In this document: piece after piece, positions 2,168 to 27,855 of the stretch
How positions within the stretch are numbered: position 1 is the first letter of the stretch
How the letters are laid out: every line of letters starts with the position of its first letter
Source of the DNA: Acidobacteriota bacterium
GTDB taxonomy: Bacteria; Acidobacteriota; Thermoanaerobaculia; Gp7-AA8; JAHWKK01
Assembly (NCBI GenBank): GCA_019347945.1
Contig: JAHWKK010000001.1
Coordinates: 67,299-131,298, forward strand
Direction of reading: 5' to 3'
DNA length: 64,000 nucleotides
Program-made: the position numbers and the translations under genes
The notes under the pieces: generated by a model
Told to the model about the DNA's origin: nothing
Databases searched by the model: none
The model's input: the letters and a program-made list of their open reading frames with translations, nothing else

Positions 2168-2889
2168 TGCGTCTCCTTCTCGCTGCTGCGCAGCATGTTC
2201 TGATAGTCCTCGTAGAGCTGGTCGAGCAGCGAGCGGAGATCATCGCCGTATTGTTCGACGAGATCGCGGGCGATGGCGCGGCTCATCACCGGCAGGGATC
2301 CGTCACCCGCACGCGCCCGCTCCAGCCTTCGGCTCACGATCTCGAGAAGCAGGTCTTCATCGAGCCCGCTCACCGTGATCGTACGGCTGACCAGACCCTT
2401 CGCGCGCAGTTCGTCGGTCAGATCCTCGTGACTCGCGAGCACGAGTGTCGCACCGGTACGACGGGCCTCGCGAAAGAGCCGGCGGCGCCGGCGCCGTGGC
2501 AGGCGCTGTGCTTCGTCGAGAAGAAGAGCCGGCCCACCCCCCGGTCGGGCCTCGAGGCGGGGGAGCGAAGGTAGGGGCTCGTCTTCCGCGAGATAGACGT
2601 ACGGGGCGCCGCGGAAGCGCCTCTGCAGCAGCCGGAGACGGGCTGTCTTGCCCCGGCCAGCCTCCCCCAGAAACTGGAGAACTGCTCGCGGTTTAGCCAG
2701 CCAGTCGAGCAGTTCGGCTTCGTTCGAAAGTACGATGAGATCGCCCACGACATCCAATGGCGGCTCACCGAACGGGTTCCGGCGGAGATTGAGCCGCGAC
2801 CAGGGAGACACCTCGCCGCGCATGACCGGGGAGAGTAGCACGGCAGCGGCCGTTCCGGGTGCTCGATCTGAACCGGGAGCGGGCGACAC
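2149..2889 (-). CDS. ExeA/GspA-like P-loop NTPase, a small AAA-type ATPase.
   Basis: Walker A is FLGEAGRGKTARL and Walker B is ALLLDEAQRL. The NPFGEPP lead-in resembles the ExeA/AAA_16 N-terminus. The true start may be the internal MRGEV at 2823. Confidence 0.6.
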   Translation of the reverse strand: MSPAPGSDRAPGTAAAVLLSPVMRGEVSPWSRLNLRRNPFGEPPLDVVGDLIVLSNEAELLDWLAKPRAVLQFLGEAGRGKTARLRLLQRRFRGAPYVYLAEDEPLPSLPRLEARPGGGPALLLDEAQRLPRRRRRRLFREARRTGATLVLASHEDLTDELRAKGLVSRTITVSGLDEDLLLEIVSRRLERARAGDGSLPVMSRAIARDLVEQYGDDLRSLLDQLYEDYQNMLRSSEKETQWRNVI

Positions 2890-2910
2890 CTCCGCCAGGA
2901 CGGCGGGGCG

Positions 2911-5181
2911 TCAGTTCCCCTCGAGCACACGCGCCTCGATCGAACGGAACCGAGGGGTGTGCCGGATCGGGTCCCATGCCGCGTCGACCCTGAGGAAGGC
3001 GAGATGAACCTCACGCTCCTCCAGCGCCCTGTCGAGTCGGTCGAGCGCCGCGTCGGTGCTGCCGAGGACGCTTTCGATCCTCGCCACCAACGTCTGGGGT
3101 ACGTAGCGTGGACGTGGCGGTTTGTCGAGCCGCCGGATCGCCTTCGATGCGCCGGCTCGCTTCCCCCACAGCGCGTAGAGCTCCGCGAGCGCGACCTCGA
3201 CTTCCGGATAGTCGGATCTTTCACGAGAGAGCGCCTGCAGCTCGTCATGAGCCTCTTCGAACATTCCCTGTCGCGCCAGTGCCAGCGCCAGAACGATGCG
3301 CGCTCCGGCCGCGGAGCTTCTCTGGATCAGCGTCCGATGCCCGTGCTCCTGTGCGTCGATCCACCGCCGCCCGAAGTAGAGCACTCGTGTCGCGCGCTCG
3401 CCCAACTCCGGGTTCAGACTGTCGAGTACGACCGCGCGTTTGGCGTCGACGACCGCCTCGTCGGGCCTCCCCACGCAGACCAGGATCTCGGCACGGCTGA
3501 TCAGGCTTTCGGGCGATTCCCGAAGGCCGGAGACGATGGTCAGTGCCTGTTCCCACTTCCAGTCCATGAAGGCCCGCATTCGAGCGCAGGCCAGCTTCGT
3601 CTCGTCGCTCGGGTGAATCGCTTCGGCTCTGGAAGCCTCGGAGAGCGCTTGATCTCGAACCGCGGATGTGGGAGCGAAGCCATTCAGTGCTTCCTGAAGC
3701 CGGGCTTCGGCCAGTCTGGCGTGCCCGAGCGCAAATGCAGGCATGCTCGTCACCGCGCGTTCGAGCGCTTCGATCGCGCGTCGAAAGCCGCTGCTGGTTC
3801 CTCGCGAAAGATCGCTGCGCACCGCTCCGAGGATCTCGACGGTTTCGCTCGAAAGCTCCGGCTGCGAGGTCATCTCGACGGTGGCATCGACCGCCGGTCT
3901 GCGAAACGGGAGGTGCGGGCCGAGCGTCTTCACGATGTTCGAGATCAAACCTTCGATTGACGCCTCGCCGGTATCGACCAGACGTTCTCGTCCGCCCCAG
4001 ATCTGTGCGCCGCGGGAAGTATCGATCAGCTGGAGCTGCACGAGAACGGAGCCCGAAGATCTGCGAATCGAGCCGGCGATGACGAGCGTGGCCTCGAGCG
4101 CAGATCCCGCCTCTTCCGGATCGGGTCGGGCGCCAAGCTTTCTGATCCGGCTGCGCGCGACGACCTCCAACGCCGTCTCGTTGGCGAGCCGGTTCTGAAT
4201 CTCCTCGGCGACGGTCATCCCGACCGATTCCAGCTCGGGATCCTCATCCGGCGTCTCCAGATCGAGAACGGCGAGCGTTGCGCGTCCCCGCTTCCTCACG
4301 ACCGGCAGGTAGCCGGAGAGCGTCTCGTGATCCCCTTTCAGAAGCGCGTCGAGGGCCGATCGGAGCTCTTCTCCCTCCGGAAACCGATCCTCGACGTTCT
4401 TTTCGAGACTCTTCATCACGATCGACTCGAGGTCCGACTGAATCGCTGCGTCGATGGCCGGCAGGGGTCGCGGCTCTTCCTTCATGATTGCGTGCATCGT
4501 TTCGGCCGCCGTCTTGCGCGCAAAGGGTCTCGAGCCGACCAGCATCTCGTAGAGCACGCAGCCGAGCGAGAAGATGTCGCTCGCAGGCCCTGTCTCTTCT
4601 CCGGCAGCCTGTTCCGGCGACATGTAACCGACCGTGCCGAGAACAAAGCCTGCCGGCGTTTTCACGATCGTCTGTTCGGTGCTGTTGATCTCCCGCATGG
4701 AGGTGTCGAGCCGCGCAATGCCGAAATCGAGCACTTTCGCTCCGTGTACCGTCAGGAAGATGTTTTCCGGCTTGATGTCACGATGCGTGATTCCGCGGGC
4801 ATGTGCGGCCGCAAGAGCACGCGCGACGTCGAGCGTGATCCTGAGCGCCTCGCGGTAATCGATCCTTCTTTCATCTCCGATGCGCTCCCGAAGAGTCTGT
4901 CCTTCCAGCAGCTCGGTCACGACGTAGCGTAGGTCTCCGTCGTGCCCTACGTCGAAAATCGAGACGATGTGCGGGTGGGAGAGGGCGGCGACCACCTTCG
5001 CTTCCCGCTCGAATCGCTCGAGAACGTCCGCGCGGGAGGTGAGGTGGGGCGAGAGCACCTTGACCGCGACGTCCCGGTCGAGCCGGGAATCATGAGCGCG
5101 ATAGACCTCGCCCATACCCCCCGCACCGAGCAGTCCCTGGATTTCGTAGGGACCGAGCAGTGTGCCTGACTCAATCGGCAT
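2911..5181 (-). CDS. Hanks-type Ser/Thr protein kinase with a C-terminal TPR-like repeat region.
   Basis: Kinase motifs are GxGxxG (LLGAGGMGEVY), VAVK, HRDIKPENIFL, DFGIA and GTVGYMSPEQ. The C-terminal roughly 450 aa are alpha-helical repeats. The start was chosen at MPIESG. Alternative upstream ATGs exist at 5217 and 5268. Confidence 0.85.
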   Translation of the reverse strand: MPIESGTLLGPYEIQGLLGAGGMGEVYRAHDSRLDRDVAVKVLSPHLTSRADVLERFEREAKVVAALSHPHIVSIFDVGHDGDLRYVVTELLEGQTLRERIGDERRIDYREALRITLDVARALAAAHARGITHRDIKPENIFLTVHGAKVLDFGIARLDTSMREINSTEQTIVKTPAGFVLGTVGYMSPEQAAGEETGPASDIFSLGCVLYEMLVGSRPFARKTAAETMHAIMKEEPRPLPAIDAAIQSDLESIVMKSLEKNVEDRFPEGEELRSALDALLKGDHETLSGYLPVVRKRGRATLAVLDLETPDEDPELESVGMTVAEEIQNRLANETALEVVARSRIRKLGARPDPEEAGSALEATLVIAGSIRRSSGSVLVQLQLIDTSRGAQIWGGRERLVDTGEASIEGLISNIVKTLGPHLPFRRPAVDATVEMTSQPELSSETVEILGAVRSDLSRGTSSGFRRAIEALERAVTSMPAFALGHARLAEARLQEALNGFAPTSAVRDQALSEASRAEAIHPSDETKLACARMRAFMDWKWEQALTIVSGLRESPESLISRAEILVCVGRPDEAVVDAKRAVVLDSLNPELGERATRVLYFGRRWIDAQEHGHRTLIQRSSAAGARIVLALALARQGMFEEAHDELQALSRERSDYPEVEVALAELYALWGKRAGASKAIRRLDKPPRPRYVPQTLVARIESVLGSTDAALDRLDRALEEREVHLAFLRVDAAWDPIRHTPRFRSIEARVLEGN

Positions 5182-5699: not shown

Positions 5700-6618
5700 T
5701 CACAACGGAGCTGAACCCGTTCTCGAGCTCGAGGGTCTGAAGGTCCGCTACGGCAAAATGATCGCGGTCAACGACATCTCCATCCGCGCCGAAGAAGGGT
5801 CGGTCTACGCGTTGCTGGGCCGGAACGGAGCGGGAAAGAGCTCGATCGTCCGCTGCCTGCTCGGATTCCAGAGGCCGAATGGTGGCGAGGCGCGGCTATT
5901 CGGCGAATCAGTGTGGAAAAAGCGCGCGAGCCTGATGGACCGGGTCGGCGTGGTTCCGGAAGACCCCGATGCACCGCCCGAGATGAAACCGCGCGAGATT
6001 CTCGAGTTCTGCTCGCGCCTCTATTCGAAGTGGGATCACGACACGGCGATCTCGCGGCTCGACCGGTTCAGAGTTCCGCTGAATACTCCCTTCGGAAAGC
6101 TCTCCAAGGGACAGAAGCGCGAGGTCCTTCTCGCCGCGGCTCTTGCGAGTGAGCCGGAGCTCCTGGTGCTCGACGATCCGACGCTCGGGCTCGACGTCGT
6201 AGCTCGAAAGGAGCTGTTCGAAGAACTGATCTCGGACCTCGCGGATCGGGGGACGACCGTCTTCGTCACGACCCACGACCTTCCCGGAATCGAGGGAATC
6301 GCCGATCGCGTCGGCATCATGCTCGAGGGCGACATGCTGGTCGACGAGGACCTCGAAGCGTTGAAGTGGCGTTTCCGCCGGATTCGCTTCACTGCGGGTG
6401 GCCAGACGAGCGACCAGATCGATCTCGGCTCTCTTCATCCAGTTTTGAGGAAGCGGTGGGGAACGGGGGTCGAGGTCGTCGTTGACAATTACTCGGAGGA
6501 TCGGCTCGACGAGCTCCGAACGAAATCGGGTATTGCCGAGATCGAAGTCAATCCCCTGTCACTCGAAGACATTTTCATCGCGGTCGCCGAGGCCGACCTA
6601 GTGAGGGGCGCGTCATGA
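5692..6618 (+). CDS. ABC transporter ATP-binding protein.
   Basis: Walker A is LLGRNGAGKSS, the ABC signature is LSKGQKREV and Walker B is LLVLDDPTLGLD. It overlaps the GntR gene by 8 nt. Confidence 0.9.
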   Translation: MSDHNGAEPVLELEGLKVRYGKMIAVNDISIRAEEGSVYALLGRNGAGKSSIVRCLLGFQRPNGGEARLFGESVWKKRASLMDRVGVVPEDPDAPPEMKPREILEFCSRLYSKWDHDTAISRLDRFRVPLNTPFGKLSKGQKREVLLAAALASEPELLVLDDPTLGLDVVARKELFEELISDLADRGTTVFVTTHDLPGIEGIADRVGIMLEGDMLVDEDLEALKWRFRRIRFTAGGQTSDQIDLGSLHPVLRKRWGTGVEVVVDNYSEDRLDELRTKSGIAEIEVNPLSLEDIFIAVAEADLVRGAS

Positions 6619-8465
6619 AAAATCTCCTGCTCGTCATTAGTCGAGAACTGGTCGAACGGAAAATGCTGATGATTGGTGCTTTTGCGATCGGCCTGGTCAT
6701 TCTGGCCGTTCCCCTGGTCACCCGCGCACCGGCAAGAGATACCTGGAACATCGCGAGCCTGTACCTGCCGATCATGCTCGGCCTGGGGATCGCTGGTTTT
6801 GCCGCATCATCGTTCGTCGCGAGCGATCTGCGAGAGCAAAGACTCTCGTTCTTCCTCGGGCGTCCGCTGTCGACGGCGAGCGTGTGGGGAGGAAAGATGC
6901 TCGCGGCGTGGCTTCTCGCGATCCTCTGTGCGCTTCTGGTCCTTCTGCCCGCGACTGTGGTCGGCAGCGGGCTGATGTTCTGGCTGACAGCGGGAGAGGG
7001 TGGGCCGATGATGCTCGTGATGTCTCTGGTGGCGTCGGCAGTGATCATCCCCTTCGGCCATGCAGCGGGAGTGGCGCTCAGGGCCCGGTCTCCATGGCTT
7101 CTGGCGGACTTCGTCGCGCTTGCTCTGTTCGGTCTCGTGACGGCAGCGGCGCTCCGCCCCTTGTTTCATCAGTACGCCTTCCGCCTCGTCTACTCGACCA
7201 TTCTCGTGTTGGCGGCGTTTCTGACGGTCACGCTTCTGATTGGAGGATATGTCGGTCTGTCACGCGGTCGGATCGACCTGCGCAGCGCTCACGCGCATCA
7301 GTCGATGATCTCGAGCGGCGCTCTGATCGCTCTCGGCATCGCGGTATCCCTTTTCGTCGTCTGGGTTCGCTCGGTCGATGCTGAGGACCTGACCGAGTTC
7401 CGGCTGATGCCCTGCGTGACGGATTGCGAGCCGATGTTGGTAGGGACTTCCCGCGGGCGGGGAGACTATCGAGCCCATTTTGCGATGAGCGGCGAAGGGT
7501 TCCGTCAACTCGACTTTGCAAGTGAAGTCGGGCAGGCGTCGGATCGGGGCCGGACCGTCTGGCTGTCGGCCGAGTCGATCGAGCCGCCGACGGCTCGTGT
7601 CGGATACCTCGATCCCGGGATGGAGCGATCCGTGCGAACGAACATCCTGGCGCACCCGTACAACTCCTGGATCGCCGTCTCACCCGACGGCGAGCGGCTC
7701 GCGATCGCTGAAGACAGAACGCTTCAGATATTCAACCTCGATGAGGAAAGGGTGATCCGGACGGTTCGTCTCCCGGACGCAGCGGACTCGAGCTTCAGAG
7801 TATGGTTCCTGAACCAGGATCAGATTCTCGTTCTGACACCCCCGGCGGGGAGAGGGCCACTATCACCTGAGGGAGGCCGCAGCACCGGTTGGACCGGCGT
7901 GGTCGCCGACGTCGAGTCCGGCGACACGCGCGAGGTGGAATTTGCGACATATCCGCACGCGATCGATTCCGACCGCGGATTGCTGATGTTCGAAGACGAG
8001 AGTGAGATCACCGTATACCGCGCCGGCTCGTCGGAGCCGTTATTCACGACCGAGGGGACGAGCGCCGTTTCGACTTCTCACGGCGTTTTCGTCACCCGCC
8101 CCAGGAGCCGCCAGGTCGCAGTCGTCGATCCTGGCAGCGGGACCGAAAGAATCTATCCGCTGCCCGCCGACGTCACCGATATCGCGCTCGGGCCGGCCGA
8201 CGAGGAAAGCATGATTCTGGGCCTTACCCGCAGAAGCCAGTTCCAGCGATGGTCGTCGAGCGTTCCCAACGGAGCGCGACTCGTACGGCTCGATCTGACG
8301 ACTGGCGAGCTCGAGGAAATGGAGGAAGGTATCGTCCCGGCGCGGGCATACCAGCCCGGGATCTCGGGACCCTACTTCCTCCGGGATACCCCCTCCGGGA
8401 TGCAGCTGATTCGAATCGATCCGGGTAGCAGCGAAATGACCGTTCTCGCGGGCGGGACGGCGTAA
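6615..8465 (+). CDS. ABC-2-type permease fused to a C-terminal periplasmic beta-propeller-like (TolB-like) domain.
   Basis: 616 aa. The N-terminal roughly 250 aa have about six TM helices and a conserved FFLGRPLSTASVWGGK motif. The C-terminus carries repeated SPDGERLAIA-type blades. It overlaps the ATPase gene by 4 nt. Confidence 0.7.
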   Translation: MKNLLLVISRELVERKMLMIGAFAIGLVILAVPLVTRAPARDTWNIASLYLPIMLGLGIAGFAASSFVASDLREQRLSFFLGRPLSTASVWGGKMLAAWLLAILCALLVLLPATVVGSGLMFWLTAGEGGPMMLVMSLVASAVIIPFGHAAGVALRARSPWLLADFVALALFGLVTAAALRPLFHQYAFRLVYSTILVLAAFLTVTLLIGGYVGLSRGRIDLRSAHAHQSMISSGALIALGIAVSLFVVWVRSVDAEDLTEFRLMPCVTDCEPMLVGTSRGRGDYRAHFAMSGEGFRQLDFASEVGQASDRGRTVWLSAESIEPPTARVGYLDPGMERSVRTNILAHPYNSWIAVSPDGERLAIAEDRTLQIFNLDEERVIRTVRLPDAADSSFRVWFLNQDQILVLTPPAGRGPLSPEGGRSTGWTGVVADVESGDTREVEFATYPHAIDSDRGLLMFEDESEITVYRAGSSEPLFTTEGTSAVSTSHGVFVTRPRSRQVAVVDPGSGTERIYPLPADVTDIALGPADEESMILGLTRRSQFQRWSSSVPNGARLVRLDLTTGELEEMEEGIVPARAYQPGISGPYFLRDTPSGMQLIRIDPGSSEMTVLAGGTA

Positions 8466-8474
8466 GGAAGAACC

Positions 8475-10376
8475 ATGGTGCGAGACATTCTGATCATTGC
8501 TGCCCGCGAGATTCGTGACAAGAAGATCCTCTTCCTCGGAGCTGCGCTCTGTGCGCTGATCGTTCTCGGAACGCCGCTGCTTCCCGGCGCTAGCGGAGAG
8601 AGTCCAACCGACGTGATGACCACGGCCGCGCTCACGCTCTTTCTGGTCGTGATGTTCGCGACGCCGGCGGCGCTCGGGTTCGGCATCATCGGGCGTGACC
8701 TCGAAGAGCATCGGATGGCGTTCTATCTGGCGCGACCGGTCAGCACCTCCTCAGTGTGGAGCGGAAAGACCCTGGGGGCTGTTTGCATCACCTTCGGGCA
8801 GGCGGCGATCATCGTTCTCATTCCCACACTGCTCGGCAAAGGTCTTCTCTCGTTTGGCAACTACGCTGCTACGGTCGGTTTCGAGAGCTTCCTGCTGAGC
8901 TCGTTTCTGAGCTCACCATTGAGAAACTCCATCCTTGCGTCTCTGCTGGTTCTCGCGCTTGCGCAGTTCTGGGCTCTCGGGTTGCGCTCGCGATCAGCAT
9001 GGCTTCTCCTCGACCTGGCGGTCTTCGCGACGGTCGCGACGATCTTCTGGATGAGCCTCCGGCCGTTCCTCCTCAACGGCGCGGAACCGGATGCAGTCCT
9101 CTTCACCTCGATCTCACTCGTCATGCTGGGAATCCTGTTGTTCGCCGGGAGCGCCGCAGGACTGCAGCTCGGGCGCAGCGACCTCCATCGAACCCATCGA
9201 TGGACCGGCATCGTCACCGCCGCTCTGTTGCTTGCAGGATTTCTCGCTCTCGGAATCCTCTCGCACCAGATTCGTTCGCTCGAGCCGAACGAGCTCGAGT
9301 ACACCTCACTCATCGCCGCTCCTAGAGAGGGGCCATGGATCGCACTCGAGGGGGCGAGAAACCGGGAGTGGAATTCCTACCGGGCGTCCTACCTGATCAA
9401 CACCCGGACCGGCAGGTCGGTGAACATCGGCAACAGTAACCCGTCAATCAGCCGTGATGGAACGATCGCCGCGATCTGGAAGCGGGAAACGCTCAATCCT
9501 CCAGTCGCACGGCTTCACTGGATCGATCTGAAAGAGCCAGACGAATTGAACCACACCGACGTTTCGATTCCTCTCGAGGCGAGGGATGATTGGAGATTCG
9601 TCCTGTGGCCGTCGCTTGCAATCTCTCCCGCCGGCGGGCGCGTGGCCTGGCTAGATCGAGGGACTGTTCAGGCCTGGGATCTTCGAAGCGCCACGAGTCT
9701 GTTCAGCGCGAGGCTTCCCGACGAGGATGCCAGACCCAGGGTGCTGTTCGATGGAGAAGACGATCTCTACGTCTTCAGCCGTCCGGCCGGAGACACCGAA
9801 GGCCAGTGGACGATCAGGAAAATCGACTTCGAAGAGAAGTCGTGGGCGATCACCGGGACAATGCCGGATGGTTGGTTTGGCCACGTCGAGGCGGGCGCTC
9901 CGCTACGCTTCACGAGGCGCCCCGCGGACGACGATATGGAAGGCCCGCGGGTCCATGAGCTTCGCGACATCGAGGATGGGTCCGTCATATCGAGCTTCAC
10001 CGCGAGGGGGCGATTTCTAAGCGATGGCCGTTTCGTGGAGATGAGTGGTGAGAGCGGAGCCGCGCTTCGGATTCTCAACCGGGAAGGCGAGCTCGAGAAA
10101 ACGATCGAGCTGCCGCCGGAGGGCACCCCCGTCGGCGCTGCTCAGGTCAGGAGCCAGATGCTCACCGTCCGGCTCGTCCCGGGCCGTGATTACCGCAACG
10201 GAAAGGACTACCTGGTCGATCTGGAGACATCGAAGGTCCGTCAGATAGATTCCGCTTTGCATGTCGTGCATCCGGCGTCCGAATCGGAAAAAGACATCAT
10301 TGTCAGCGACGGGCGGAGCCTCTTTCTCCTCGACCTCGAGACAATGAAGACCGAGCGGATCGCCGGCAGGGGCTGA
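8475..10376 (+). CDS. Paralogous ABC-2-type permease with a C-terminal beta-propeller-like domain.
   Basis: 633 aa with the same architecture as the preceding gene. The matching motif is FYLARPVSTSSVWSGK, and the C-terminus has SRDGTIAAIW and SPAGGRVAWLD blades. Confidence 0.7.
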   Translation: MVRDILIIAAREIRDKKILFLGAALCALIVLGTPLLPGASGESPTDVMTTAALTLFLVVMFATPAALGFGIIGRDLEEHRMAFYLARPVSTSSVWSGKTLGAVCITFGQAAIIVLIPTLLGKGLLSFGNYAATVGFESFLLSSFLSSPLRNSILASLLVLALAQFWALGLRSRSAWLLLDLAVFATVATIFWMSLRPFLLNGAEPDAVLFTSISLVMLGILLFAGSAAGLQLGRSDLHRTHRWTGIVTAALLLAGFLALGILSHQIRSLEPNELEYTSLIAAPREGPWIALEGARNREWNSYRASYLINTRTGRSVNIGNSNPSISRDGTIAAIWKRETLNPPVARLHWIDLKEPDELNHTDVSIPLEARDDWRFVLWPSLAISPAGGRVAWLDRGTVQAWDLRSATSLFSARLPDEDARPRVLFDGEDDLYVFSRPAGDTEGQWTIRKIDFEEKSWAITGTMPDGWFGHVEAGAPLRFTRRPADDDMEGPRVHELRDIEDGSVISSFTARGRFLSDGRFVEMSGESGAALRILNREGELEKTIELPPEGTPVGAAQVRSQMLTVRLVPGRDYRNGKDYLVDLETSKVRQIDSALHVVHPASESEKDIIVSDGRSLFLLDLETMKTERIAGRG

Positions 10377-14655: not shown

Positions 14656-14985
14656 TCAGGCCGTCTCTCTGGACTCGAGGGGATATCCCTTTTCCACCCA
14701 GGCGTCGTATCCACCTCGCAATGCGTGCACGTTCGAGAATCCCTTGTCGATCATCTTTTGCGCCAGACTGGCGCTCGAGCCTTCGCCCGGTCACGTGCAG
14801 TAGGTGACGATCGGGCGGTCTTTCGGGAGCTCGTCGATGTGGTTCTCGAGCTCGTTCGCCGGAACTCTCACGGCTCCGGGAACCTTCTTCGTCGCTTTGC
14901 TCCAGGCCTCTGGATTTCTCGCGTCGACGAAGAGGGCGTCATCCAGGTTGCGGGCTTGTTCTGGCTCGATTCTCAACTCGCTCAC
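14656..14985 (-). CDS. Single-domain rhodanese sulfurtransferase with an in-frame TGA in the active-site loop, a candidate selenoprotein.
   Basis: The translation is MSELRIEPEQARNLDDALFVDARNPEAWSKATKKVPGAVRVPANELENHIDELPKDRPIVTYCT-[TGA 14791-14793]-PGEGSSASLAQKMIDKGFSNVHALRGGYDAWVEKGYPLESRETA*. Read through, the TGA aligns without gaps onto the GlpE active site, C65-YHGNSS-KGAAQYLLQQGY...GGFEAW. Positions equivalent to plus-strand first codon positions show about 74% GC, which supports coding in this frame. Confidence 0.55.
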
Positions 14986-15096: not shown

Positions 15097-15855
15097 TCAG
15101 ACACCGAGGGATCGGAGAAGGTAGCCGATTGCATAGGCGAGCCCGGCCGCGATCGAGCCGATCGCGAGTGTCGAAAGACCGGTCCTCCACCAGGGATGAA
15201 TCGACCAACGGCTTCGGAGCGACCCGATTCCGAAGAAGACGGCGAGAGTCATTCCGACCGACCAGTCGAACGGCGAGGAGATCCCGAGGTACCACGGCAC
15301 GAGCGGAACGATTCCGCAGAGGATGAAGGCAAAAAACGTCGCCGTGGCCGCTCGCAGAGGTGATCGAACTTCGAGGGGGAGGCCGTACTCGTCGGTGAGC
15401 ATCGTATCGACCCACCGATCGTCATCGCCGGTGACGACGCTGACGGCTGATTCGAGATCTTCTCCCTCGAAACCCTTCGACGCGAAAATCTGCCGGACTT
15501 CCTCCCGCTCGCCATCGGGATCCACGCGGATGTGCCGGTACTCGATCTCCCTGATGTGCTCGATCTGCTGCAGCTCGGTCTGCGTGGCCGAGTAGTTCCC
15601 GGCAGCCATGGAAAAACCGTCTCCCACGAGATTGGCGACGCCCAGAATGAGGACCACACGAGCGGAGAGCTCCGCTCCGACGACGCCCGTCACGATCGCG
15701 AACGTCGTCACGGCGCCGTCGATCCCGCCGTAGACCCAGTCGCGAAGATAGCTGTGCGAGGGTCCCGACTCCAATCTTTCCCGGATGTCTTCGGGAGCAT
15801 GGGAGTGCTCGAGGTCTTCGGTGCTCACAGCGCAGAGTTTAGCGTCAATGCGCAC
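15097..15855 (-). CDS. VIT1/CCC1-family Fe2+/Mn2+ transporter.
   Basis: The sequence HSYLRDWVYGGIDGAVTTFAIVTGVVGA plus five TM helices and a central cytoplasmic acidic region match the VIT family. Confidence 0.85.
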   Translation of the reverse strand: MRIDAKLCAVSTEDLEHSHAPEDIRERLESGPSHSYLRDWVYGGIDGAVTTFAIVTGVVGAELSARVVLILGVANLVGDGFSMAAGNYSATQTELQQIEHIREIEYRHIRVDPDGEREEVRQIFASKGFEGEDLESAVSVVTGDDDRWVDTMLTDEYGLPLEVRSPLRAATATFFAFILCGIVPLVPWYLGISSPFDWSVGMTLAVFFGIGSLRSRWSIHPWWRTGLSTLAIGSIAAGLAYAIGYLLRSLGV

Positions 15856-15908: not shown

Positions 15909-16334
15909 TTGTCGAACATCGGTTCCATCTCTGGTAGGATCACTTCAATGGCGAAAGAGAAGGCGAAGAAGAAAGCGAAGATCAAGTACGACTGCTCGAA
16001 GTGCCCGGCATACTGCTGCAGCTACGACCGGATCGAGGTGAGCGACTTCGACCTCGAGCGGCTCGCCGCATATTTCGGTATCCCGGTGAAAAAAGCGGAG
16101 AAGAAATTCACCAAGTGGTGGGACGACGATGAGCGAGTTCTTCGCCACCAGAAAGACCACATTTTCGATTCGGTCTGCAGATTTCTCGACAGCGACACCC
16201 GGCAGTGCACGATCTACGAGGCACGACCCGAGGTCTGCCGGGAGTACCCCGATGCGAAGATCTGCGGCTACTACGAGTTTCTGAGGTGGGAGCGGAAGTT
16301 TCAGGAGGATCCGGAGTTCATCCCGCTTTCCTGA
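15909..16334 (+). CDS. YkgJ-family (UPF0153) putative Fe-S/zinc-cluster protein.
   Basis: The N-terminal motif is CSKCPAYCC (CxxCxxCC), and further cysteines follow in CRFLDSDTRQCTIY and EVCREY. An alternative start lies at MAKEK (15948). Confidence 0.7.
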   Translation: MSNIGSISGRITSMAKEKAKKKAKIKYDCSKCPAYCCSYDRIEVSDFDLERLAAYFGIPVKKAEKKFTKWWDDDERVLRHQKDHIFDSVCRFLDSDTRQCTIYEARPEVCREYPDAKICGYYEFLRWERKFQEDPEFIPLS

Positions 16335-16335
16335 C

Positions 16336-17087
16336 GTCGTCGGATACCATGTTTATTGATTGGAGCACCGGCGCGAACGCGTAGAGATGAGGAGTTCTGA
16401 TCGCAGCGGGCTTGCCTCGGATCACCCTACAAGAGCTGTGCTTGGTTGGGGTAGAAAGCCATTGCGAAAGAATGTTCAGATGCCGTTAAAGCGGAACGAA
16501 GTCGAGTGATCGAAGCTGAATGCTGACGCGGTGCTGCCGTACGAGCTGCGGCTCGACGACTTCGTAATCGCGATGCAGGACGTGTGCGACTTTTTCTAAG
16601 ATGTGAATACCGGGGTTCTGGAAAAAGCGCTAGAGCGCTTTGATGACATGCTGCGGCCGCAGAACATGTCGGGCATATCTCGGACATGTTGACTGCAAGC
16701 ATGGCGAGCCACTCGCGGTCCCTGACCCAGAACCAGCAACACAACGGCCATCCGGATCTACTGGTCAAAGGTGTGTATCCGGGCAATGCGGCACGGGCGG
16801 GCTCAGAAGGAGTGGAGATCAAGACCACACGCAAAAAAGGCGGTGCCGTCGATACGCACGGAGCACGGGATCAGTGGATGTGCGTGTTCGTTTACGAAGT
16901 CGACAACAAAACTGAGCCGGCGCGTAATCGGGAACCGATGACCGTCACAGAGGCCTATCTTTGCCAGGTCTGTGTGGCGGACTTTCGAAAGAACCCACGT
17001 AGTGAGCTCGGTACAAGAACAGCAACCCTTCACAAGGAAGGCGTTGCTCGGCTTCGGGAGAACTGGATCTACATGCTGAACAGGTAG
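16336..17087 (+). pseudogene. Decayed PD-(D/E)xK restriction endonuclease, cognate to the adjacent methyltransferase.
   Basis: One reading frame gives protein-like segments, ...AVLPYELRLDDFVIAMQDVCDFF and DVNTGVLEKALERFDDMLRPQNMSGISRT. They are interrupted by a TGA at 16507 and a TAA at 16597. A frameshift around 16670-16690 then leads into an intact 133-aa ORF (16686-17087) that carries HPDLLV...EGVEIK, a PD...ExK motif. GC content falls to about 55% here. It is convergent with the methyltransferase and overlaps it by 19 nt. Confidence 0.45.
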
Positions 17088-18271
17088 CCGCTGTTCGCTC
17101 CGCCGTTCTTGTACTTGATGAGTTTCGGAATCGCTTTGACAGCGAGGTCGAAGTAGCGCGGATCCTTCTCGATGCCGATGCTGCGGTAGCCGACGGCTTC
17201 CGCCGCGGCAAGCGTTGATCCTGAGCCGGCGAACGTATCGAGGATGATGCCTTCGCCGAGCGGAAGCACACCACGAATGAGAGTCCGCAGGAACATCTGC
17301 GGCTTGAGGCTCGGATGCGGCGCCAAATCCTTCTCCTTCTTGTGGGTCGGCGATGACGGGATCACGTCGCCGAACGGCTTGTCAGGTGACGGCCTTCGAA
17401 ATCCTCCCGTCGACCACCTGCGCAGGTTGTCCTGCACGCGACCGTCGATAGGTTTCCGGAAGACGAGCCACGGCTCCCACATCGAGCGCGGCATGACCGA
17501 GACCCCGAAGAACTCGTCGTGAGCCGCCTTCGGGCGATCGCCGCCACGCATCGTCATCACGAGTCGCGCGATCTCTCCGCGCCGCTCGAGTCCCGCTCGT
17601 GCGAGAGCACCTGAGATGACGTAGGAGAGAAGCGGGTTGCTGGCGACTACCACGTTCGCGCCAGGCACGAGAACCGGCAGGAGCGCCTGGCCCCAATCGA
17701 AGAAGAACTTCCCGAGCTGCTCGACATCGTTCTCCGACAGTACCGTGAAGCGGGGGAGGGGAGAGCGCTTGCTGCCATCGAAACTAGGCGGGATCCGCCA
17801 AACACCACCCTTACCATTTCGCAGTTTCTCTTGTTGTGCCGGTTGGTACTCGATGAGCCCGTAAGGTGGATCCGTAACGACCGCGTGGATCGTGTTCGCC
17901 CGTTGCTCCGCGAGCCACTCGAAACAGTCCGTTTGGACGAGCGTGGACGATCGGAACTTGCTCGTCCGGAATTCCCCCCATGCAGGATCGGGATTGTCTC
18001 CATACTCTTCCGCGTGCTGATCCCCGATGGTGTAGATCCCGCGATCTTCGCGCTCGAACAGCTCCCCCAGGTTGAGCCGGAGATAGGATCGGATGCTCGA
18101 GGACGGGATGTCGCCGATGAGACCCTTGACTCCATCTTCGATCTCGGCGACAGATGCTCGCTTCTTAGAAGAGAGAACGGTTATGATCGCGTCCCGTATC
18201 TCGCCGGGCCGGCGACGCTGTTGCTTGGGTTTGCCCGGGGTCTTCTTCGACCGGCGGGATGAGGAGGGCAT
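17069..18271 (-). CDS. Beta-class DNA methyltransferase (N6-adenine/N4-cytosine) with an N-terminal winged-helix-like domain.
   Basis: Motif IV DPPY (AVVTDPPYGLIE) precedes motif I FxGxG (ILDTFAGSGSTLAAAEAVGYRSIGIEKDPRYF). That order defines the beta class. Confidence 0.9.
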   Translation of the reverse strand: MPSSSRRSKKTPGKPKQQRRRPGEIRDAIITVLSSKKRASVAEIEDGVKGLIGDIPSSSIRSYLRLNLGELFEREDRGIYTIGDQHAEEYGDNPDPAWGEFRTSKFRSSTLVQTDCFEWLAEQRANTIHAVVTDPPYGLIEYQPAQQEKLRNGKGGVWRIPPSFDGSKRSPLPRFTVLSENDVEQLGKFFFDWGQALLPVLVPGANVVVASNPLLSYVISGALARAGLERRGEIARLVMTMRGGDRPKAAHDEFFGVSVMPRSMWEPWLVFRKPIDGRVQDNLRRWSTGGFRRPSPDKPFGDVIPSSPTHKKEKDLAPHPSLKPQMFLRTLIRGVLPLGEGIILDTFAGSGSTLAAAEAVGYRSIGIEKDPRYFDLAVKAIPKLIKYKNGGANSGYLFSM

Positions 18272-27411: not shown

Positions 27412-27855
27412 TCAGCCGCCGGTCGACCGGGCTTCGGTCTCTGCGACGACGGTGCCGATATGGCCGGCGATGTCGTTTCCGGAGTGAACCGCCCGGATCT
27501 TCTTATCACGCCGGATGTAAAAGGTGACCCTTCGAGCCAGACCCAGCAGCGGAATGCCCACCCCGTAGTCACTGATCACGCTGCCGCCGCGATCCCCGAC
27601 GAGCGGATATGGAAGATCGAGGCTTCGCGCGAAGGCGTCGCTCTTTTTCTGTCTGTCGTTGGACACACCAACGACGGCGACACCGACCTTCTTCAGCTCT
27701 TGGTAGATCCGGCGAAACTCGCCGGCCTCGAGCGTTCAGCCGGGTGTAAACGCCTTCGGAAAGAAGAAGACTGCGACGTCGCTGGTCTCGAGCAGCGCAT
27801 GCAGCCGGGTCTCGGCGATCTCGAAGTCGGGCGCCTCGTCACCTCGTTTGAGCAT
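27412..27855 (-). CDS. bcp: Bcp-type 1-Cys peroxiredoxin with TGA in place of the peroxidatic Cys codon, a candidate selenoprotein.
   Basis: The translation is MLKRGDEAPDFEIAETRLHALLETSDVAVFFFPKAFTPG-[TGA 27736-27738]-TLEAGEFRRIYQELKKVGVAVVGVSNDRQKKSDAFARSLDLPYPLVGDRGGSVISDYGV... It aligns colinearly with E. coli Bcp, YPKAMTPGCTVQACGLRDNMDELKKAGVDVLGISTDKPEKLSRF, and the TGA falls exactly on the peroxidatic Cys. The ORF track splits this gene into two fragments, 27736-27999 and 27412-27666. Confidence 0.6.

Follow-up and report, generated by a model that had tools for sequence, protein, structure and literature searches.

Within a 64,000-nucleotide stretch of the Acidobacteriota contig JAHWKK010000001.1 (positions 67,299 to 131,298; hereafter the window), a gene for a single-domain rhodanese on the minus strand carries an in-frame TGA at the point where the active-site loop would be expected. 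Does this codon end the protein, or is it decoded as selenocysteine (Sec)? We suggest that the second answer is correct. The gene is a complete candidate selenoprotein gene (14985..14656, minus strand; 109 residues), as judged from its open reading frame (ORF), its translation and its Pfam and NCBIfam matches, and it would encode a Sec-containing rhodanese in which UGA65 specifies Sec and a hairpin a short distance downstream acts as a bacterial Sec insertion sequence (SECIS) element. We put the probability of this interpretation at roughly 90%.

The gene starts with GTG (14985..14983), preceded by an AGGA located 6–9 nt upstream, and its first part, VSELRIEPEQARNLDDALFVDARNPEAWSKATKKVPGAVRVPANELENHIDELPKDRPIVTYCT, opens with VSELRIEPEQ and closes with DRPIVTYCT. 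Codon 65, the candidate Sec-UGA (14793..14791, minus strand), lies in the motif Y-C-T-U-P-G-E-G-S-S-A and is followed in the same frame by PGEGSSASLAQKMIDKGFSNVHALRGGYDAWVEKGYPLESRETA and then by a terminator TGA (14658..14656). This way of reading the gene across the TGA had been proposed in the first-pass annotation of this DNA, and both ORF and translation bear it out. The product was described there as a GlpE-like rhodanese of 110 residues; it is a rhodanese, but its length is 109 residues (110 codons counting the stop), and the likeness to GlpE is a loose one, with a score of 44.4 bits against a cutoff of 102 for the GlpE equivalog model NF001195. With Cys in place of the internal stop, the read-through product matches the Pfam family Rhodanese (PF00581) at 55.5 bits, against a gathering threshold of 22.2 (E=8e-15), and also matches solved rhodanese domains. 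Assignment to PF00581 is supported both by this score and by the alpha/beta rhodanese fold, the latter taken from an AlphaFold2 (AF2) model of the Cys-containing homologue P0002. Coding signal is present throughout: GC content at the three codon positions is 0.60/0.45/0.75 overall, with third-position values of 0.78 before and 0.73 after the internal TGA and second-position values of 0.41 and 0.50, respectively. This agrees with the earlier estimate of ~74% at third positions and with the proposal that the frame is coding on both sides of the TGA. In the GenBank/NR record, the same gene appears as a 64-residue N-terminal hypothetical protein (P0001, KY459_00335) from a metagenome-assembled genome (MAG) labelled Acidobacteria bacterium, on a 325-kb contig.

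A search of protein collections returned eight homologues with 45–100% identity, all of them ending at ...YCT, while full-length homologues read YCT-C-PHEASSA across the site (...ITYCTCPHEASSA...). At the DNA level, the truncated homologues have a TGA at the site in every case, with the remainder of the rhodanese in frame wherever the contig continues. Scans of GTDB species genomes and JGI metagenomes added a further 160 loci. In total, the codon after Y-C-T was TGA in 111 loci and TGT or TGC in 42, with 16 loci unclassified, which amounts to Sec/Cys pairing over 153 loci. Among the species genomes of GTDB, for which motif-neutral search patterns excluding the Cys/Sec site were used, the split was 68 TGA to 9 Cys (77 classified). 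Most carriers belong to the Acidobacteriota (Pyrinomonadaceae, Blastocatellia, Terriglobia), and the Gemmatimonadota contribute some. A TGA-form copy (L063) is also present on the complete acidobacterial chromosome OY969418.1. Relatives that lack the TGA always have Cys at the aligned position, and never Trp or Gly, so the alignment of UGA with Cys by which bacterial selenoproteins are commonly recognised is present here. One Pyrinomonadaceae MAG, SMAG_U2584, carries two TGA-form copies on different contigs (L023 and L026; DASVXV010000060.1 and DASVXV010000061.1), suggesting that the selenoprotein gene can duplicate within a genome.

The sequence beyond the TGA behaves as a coding region. In 101 distinct Sec forms, entropy downstream of the TGA and outside the hairpin is 0.76/0.87/1.48 bit at codon positions 1/2/3, and the frame typically closes ~41 codons on (64 loci). 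The UGA is kept in diverged orthologues and what follows it is conserved as coding sequence, a combination expected of a selenoprotein gene. It had been pointed out at the outset that homologues might show this locus as a fragmented pseudogene; they do not, their downstream halves being in frame and varying in the manner of coding DNA. On this pattern of variation, we conclude that the downstream half of the rhodanese is translated.

The second line of evidence comes from the hairpin, which is embedded in the coding sequence (14774..14760, minus strand). Its core consists of GCGCC (14774..14770), a loop AGUCU (14769..14765) and GGCGC (14764..14760), and can alternatively be drawn as a helix of 6 bp closed by a GUC loop. 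It is separated from the UGA by a 16-nt spacer (14790..14775, minus strand), which encodes P-G-E-G-S, supplies base 1 of the Ser codon that follows, and places the apical loop 21 nt from the UGA; coordinates and spacing are exactly those first claimed for the hairpin. Across the 101 Sec forms, which align over 72 columns without gaps, this spacing does not vary. All five hairpin pairs are kept in 99 of the 101 distinct Sec forms, compared to 5 of 39 Cys forms, and standard pairs fill 99.6% of hairpin cells in the Sec forms, a value reached by none of 500 shuffles. Compensatory changes occur at alignment pairs 30/42 and 33/39: one pair switches from C-G to U-A in five sequences, and another becomes U-A in one sequence and G-C in one. 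When run unguided, RNAalifold recovered this helix as the sole consensus helix, and the consensus fold of the Sec forms showed no conserved SECIS of greater length, with a lower stem or a bulged U.

Cys forms provide a control for these observations, as almost the same peptide (S-S-A-x-V-A-x) is encoded in them. Within the hairpin, entropy at third positions is 0.33 bit for the Sec forms, against 1.61 for the Cys forms; outside it, the two groups are similar (1.48 and 1.39 bit, respectively). Because synonymous sites are free in the Cys forms and frozen in the Sec forms, they must be held by selection at the RNA level, and only where the codon is UGA. This comparison indicates that the hairpin is under RNA-level selection in the TGA forms alone.

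The loop is equally constrained. All Sec forms have G as its second base, in loops that read CGUGU, CGGGU, AGUGU, AGUUU, AGUCU, GGUCU or CGUGC, and the A-G-U-C-U of the window gene fits the pattern N1-G-[G/U]-N-N2 with N1:N2 = A:U. Published criteria for bacterial SECIS (bSECIS) elements specify a loop of 3–9 nt, an upper stem of 4–16 bp, a G in the first two loop positions, 16–37 nt from UGA to loop, and a minimum free energy <= -7.5 kcal/mol (PMC13188914). The present element, with its AGUCU or GUC loop, 5- or 6-bp stem, distance of 21 nt and consensus term of -9.0 kcal/mol, falls inside all of these limits. As for the suggestion that the hairpin be examined against models of bacterial SECIS elements, the published bSECIS ranges accommodate it; an Rfam scan of the 64-kb window gave no matches and no bacterial SECIS family, and the hairpin was accordingly judged by comparison among relatives.

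We propose that UGA65 is recoded as Sec during translation, with the hairpin 16 nt on and its A-G-U-C-U loop acting as the SECIS. The latter would recruit SelB carrying Sec-tRNA(Sec) to the ribosome, while the second UGA (14658..14656), which is not followed by such a hairpin, would terminate the protein.

What would Sec do in this protein? The AF2 model of P0002 (pLDDT 84) has a rhodanese fold that matches 3TP9, 3NHV and 6MXV with TM-scores of 0.73–0.78, a comparison of folds with no residue mapping. In this model, the central strand (residues 65–69, TVITY) leads into a loop (70–75, C-T-C-P-H-E) holding both chalcogen residues, and then into a helix. Across the clade the site is well defined as Y-C-T-U-P-x-E-x-S-S-A: an invariant Cys stands two residues before Sec, U+2 is His, Asn or Gly, U+3 is always Glu, and U+5 to U+7 read Ser-Ser-Ala. 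When aligned with GlpE by hhalign, D-R-P-I-V-T-Y falls on D-T-P-V-M-V-M, C-T forms a two-residue insertion, and U-P-G-E-G-S-S-A runs without gaps along C-Y-H-G-N-S-S-K, so that the Sec column stands on Cys65 of GlpE. The GlpE sequence used here is one we take to be correct, and it is consistent with the 1GMX match. U65 stands at the canonical distance from the helix and from the G-[FY] motif, and Sec usually replaces a catalytic redox-active Cys; for these two reasons, we favour Sec over Cys63 as the probable catalytic residue. In the active-site loop that directly follows the central beta-strand, Sec, two residues beyond the invariant Cys, would then take the place of the canonical catalytic Cys. 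There it may carry the transferred chalcogen as an Se-S adduct, the selenium counterpart of a cysteine persulfide, or alternatively may cycle through a selenenylsulfide with Cys63.

Further to that, the rhodanese gene is not the only candidate selenoprotein gene in the window. As had been reported at the first inspection, a gene for a Bcp/PrxQ-type peroxiredoxin of 147 residues (27855..27412, minus strand) also contains a catalytic-site TGA, and a similar hairpin goes with it. Its candidate Sec-UGA (27738..27736, minus strand) occurs in F-T-P-G-U-T, at what we take to be the peroxidatic Cys position of the Bcp family, and the hairpin CCGGCGA-GUU-UCGCCGG (27725..27709, minus strand) lies 10 nt after the UGA. 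Its apical A-GUU-U and the A-GUC-U of the rhodanese hairpin belong to one type (A-GUY-U). The best NCBIfam match of the product is a thioredoxin-dependent thiol peroxidase, below cutoff. A Prx (Bcp) selenoprotein family with a TxxU motif has been listed (PMC9312934), and F-T-P-G-U-T fits that pattern. That two genes 13 kb apart should each have an active-site UGA and a hairpin of this type speaks for Sec decoding by the organism.

Several observations weigh against a Sec-containing rhodanese. The hairpin is short (5–6 bp), and its single-sequence fold is ordinary over 71 nt (z = -0.37), with z = -1.9 for a 46-nt fold; as the fold of the single sequence is not exceptional, support for the hairpin is comparative and not thermodynamic. 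In the best-matching family, NF041203, the protein (Cys for Sec) scores 102.4 bits, short of the curated cutoff of 115. Confidence of the P0002 model is lowest in the active-site loop itself (pLDDT 74). HMMER pairwise alignments (3TP9, 5VE3) and a MAFFT alignment with the canonical homologue P0014 put Cys63, and not Sec, on the catalytic Cys. The original placement of the TGA on Cys65 of GlpE is consequently upheld by hhalign, with the C-T insertion, and contradicted by HMMER and MAFFT; conversely, of the alternative offered at the time, in which the upstream Cys is catalytic and forms a Cys-x-Sec pair, the pair is real, whereas the alignment of Cys63 is given by HMMER and MAFFT and opposed by hhalign. 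There is no conserved operon context among related loci that would point to a substrate. Lastly, neither the 64-kb window nor the DNA flanking related loci contains selA, selB, selD or tRNA-Sec. A Pfam scan of the 50 called window genes found no SelA, SelB or SelD, tRNA scans found no tRNA at all in the window and no tRNA-Sec in 60 related loci, and a pattern search for SelD and elongation factor-type motifs in 1.4 Mb of related-locus DNA produced a single match, similar to initiation factor IF2. Searches with edge genes for further flanks led to short Logan contigs of SRR15827330 only, with no new flanks. Because no sel genes lie within the window or the related flanks, Sec decoding by this organism is something that we infer: the occurrence of two active-site UGA genes within 13 kb makes the MAG a probable Sec user, and Acidobacteria are known to include such organisms (PMC1794560; PMC12013277).

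Among the other ways to explain the locus, the one that fares best has the UGA read as Cys, either by a tRNA-Sec-like opal suppressor tRNA-Cys (selC*, anticodon UCA), which might be delivered by a SelB paralogue recognising the same kind of hairpin, or by an acidobacterial allo-tRNA suppressor. Such tRNAs do exist: Deltaproteobacteria and other phyla have selC* tRNA-Cys(UCA) together with SelB*, and allo-tRNAs capable of nonsense suppression are found in Acidobacteria (PMC5389517). It is also true that our sequence data speak of recoding and of a hairpin, and not of the amino acid inserted. However, selC* has been reported in anaerobes of phyla other than Acidobacteria and always alongside a full Sec apparatus (PMC5389517). 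Acidobacteria are documented users of Sec. Moreover, there is no obvious gain in inserting Cys through a UGA and a hairpin when TGY would do, and yet TGA outnumbers Cys by 68 to 9 in the species genomes. We consider Cys insertion improbable.

A further possibility would be that the TGA is a true stop, produced by a sequencing or assembly error, marking a pseudogene, or ending a functional 64-residue protein. The public annotation as a 64-residue hypothetical protein and the lack of visible Sec machinery in the window agree with this. Against it, the TGA occupies the same position in all 111 loci, which were assembled independently and represent several phylum-level lineages; beyond it the frame is maintained, with substitutions of the coding type and a consistent stop; and RNA-level selection on the hairpin is confined to TGA forms. 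A 64-residue product would, in addition, be a half-domain in which the active-site loop is missing, as is the C-terminal half of the rhodanese fold. As the TGA is conserved, the frame is kept and variation is concentrated at third positions, we regard error, pseudogene and a genuine short product as excluded for practical purposes, with almost no probability left to them. The first-pass argument that Sec decoding is a better explanation than two independent sequencing errors gains support, for the rhodanese gene, from the number of TGA loci and from the contrast in the hairpin. Finally, reassignment of UGA to Trp or Gly throughout the genome, as in Mycoplasma or SR1/Gracilibacteria, is the other known route to an in-frame TGA. 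Nothing specific speaks for it here, and it can be dismissed as virtually impossible: TGA serves as the terminator of the rhodanese gene, of the Bcp gene and of 44 among 108 related Sec-form genes, homologues have Cys at the site, table 11 yields normal gene calls throughout the window, and since UGA still terminates such genes, the code is not reassigned.

Decoding of UGA65 as Sec has practical consequences even though it leaves the current understanding of Sec decoding unchanged. The window gene and at least seven diverged homologues are wrongly annotated in public records as truncated at the UGA, and more than 100 related loci carry the same unrecognised Sec codon. With a slightly extended NF041203, which now misses this clade by 13–24 bits, or with a sister model beside it, a selenoprotein that is widespread among the Acidobacteriota and Gemmatimonadota of soils would become recognisable. 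The matched set of Sec and Cys forms is an unusually clean natural experiment on how a coding sequence accommodates a SECIS, because the hairpin is present only in the Sec forms, and it could also reveal what Sec contributes to rhodanese chemistry. A more far-reaching suggestion, which we consider speculative and rather unlikely, is that the YCTU-P-(H/N/G)-E-x-S-S-A clade is functionally distinct from the LYCAU proteins: its active-site loop, with its Cys, its Sec, an invariant Glu and often a His, would then look more like a site handling metals, metalloids or selenium, or a C-x-U redox site, than like that of a classical cationic sulfurtransferase. The TGA form is predominant among soil Acidobacteriota species genomes (68 of 77 classified hits), and if the suggestion is true, Sec decoding would be widespread and mostly unannotated in aerobic soil Acidobacteriota.

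The surroundings of the gene offer some further observations. Directly upstream of the rhodanese gene lies a VIT1-family (Fe/Mn transporter) gene (15097-15855, minus strand), which is adjoined by a divergent gene for a putative Zn/Fe-chelating CxxCxxCC protein (15909-16334, plus strand). This arrangement of VIT1, CxxCxxCC and rhodanese genes recurs in the closest homologue, L001 (100-1359; 84% identity), and not in distant loci, where the neighbours include AraC regulators, an ion channel, a MoaA-like radical SAM gene and a ferredoxin. In a single locus, on the Gemmatimonadota-type contig L006, a release-factor-like gene adjoins the Sec-rhodanese gene (2374-3513; baeRF family 10/2 and acVLRF1 in Pfam). 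In a Pyrinomonadaceae MAG (L038, 13399-13477), ARAGORN called a 'tRNA-???' with a two-base anticodon ~3 kb from a TGA-form rhodanese gene; irregular allo-tRNAs are known from Acidobacteria (PMC5389517). Elsewhere in the window, a GntR regulator and an ABC ATPase are followed downstream by two adjacent large ORFs of 616 and 633 residues (6615-8465 and 8475-10376, plus strand). Neither has a Pfam match, and the two may encode uncharacterised ABC permease-like membrane proteins. An N6/N4 DNA methylase gene (17069-18271, minus strand) converges on an ORF of 133 residues (16686-17087, plus strand) with a 19-bp overlap at the 3' ends; the latter ORF has a lower third-position GC (0.64) and no family match, and may belong to a restriction-modification system or a mobile insert.

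How does the predicted protein relate to those already described? Over 3,000 relatives came up in a profile search; the 120 matches listed are without exception full-length (102–140 residues), the named ones being called rhodanese-related sulfurtransferase or rhodanese-like domain-containing protein, and none of the matches listed is named as a selenoprotein. The kind of rhodanese in question is nevertheless already known, since C-x-U rhodanese selenoproteins have been catalogued. They were reportedly first predicted with bSECISearch by Zhang and Gladyshev in 2005. Reviews list five forms of rhodanese selenoprotein, of which form 3 (form 2 of COG0607) is the CxU form, represented by NF041203 and exemplified by TKB26178.1. 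A 'Rhodanese-related sulfurtransferase' selenoprotein is part of the Sargasso Sea set (PMC1088965), and a rhodanese selenoprotein was found in the symbionts of Olavius, including a UxU form (PMC1976440).

No other NCBIfam model matches the window protein nearly as well as NF041203 ('rhodanese_LYCAU, rhodanese-related (seleno)protein', E=1e-29). Three relatives score 91.3–97.3 bits on this model, and the match of the window protein covers profile positions 35–126 of 126, the N-terminal ~34 positions being absent, while the Cys-x-Sec motif is present as Y-C-T-U. As both score and coverage fall short, we do not file the protein in NF041203; going by motif and score, the window clade is best described as a sister clade of that family, whose mode of action it would share. 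Both have one rhodanese domain in which a conserved Cys precedes Sec by two positions (LYC-A-U vs YC-T-U), both have Cys homologues, and both place the SECIS within the coding sequence. The differences lie in the clade motif, TYCTU-P-x-E-x-SSA, in the public records, which cut these genes at the UGA, and in distribution, the clade being found mostly in soil Acidobacteriota and in some Gemmatimonadota. Similarity to rhodanese forms 1, 2 and 4 (UxxS, UxxG and UxU) and to TsoB (UxxxxU) consists in the rhodanese fold, in a Sec within or next to the active-site loop and in prediction from Sec/Cys pairs and bSECIS elements. However, forms 1, 2 and 4 have other Sec-flanking motifs than the CxU seen here, and TsoB is a 572-residue fusion, against whose model the window protein scores 27 bits (cutoff 805).

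The putative SECIS resembles the element of E. coli fdhF and the bSECIS consensus in being a stem-loop within the coding region just 3' of the UGA, with a small G-U loop, a GC-rich upper stem and a UGA-to-loop distance of 21 nt that falls within 16–37 nt, but unlike the fdhF element it keeps only a helix of 5–6 bp. The loop G-U presumably stands at G23 U24 in fdhF, compared to G26 U27 here, one codon further from the UGA. With GlpE (1GMX), PspE, 3TP9, 6MXV and 5VE3, the protein shares its fold and a domain size of ~108 residues. It departs from GlpE and the other Cys rhodaneses in its predicted Sec in place of Cys and in an extra 'C-T' dipeptide ahead of the presumed catalytic position. An invariant Glu, often with a His just before it, sets its loop apart from those of sulfurtransferases, which usually are neutral or cationic.

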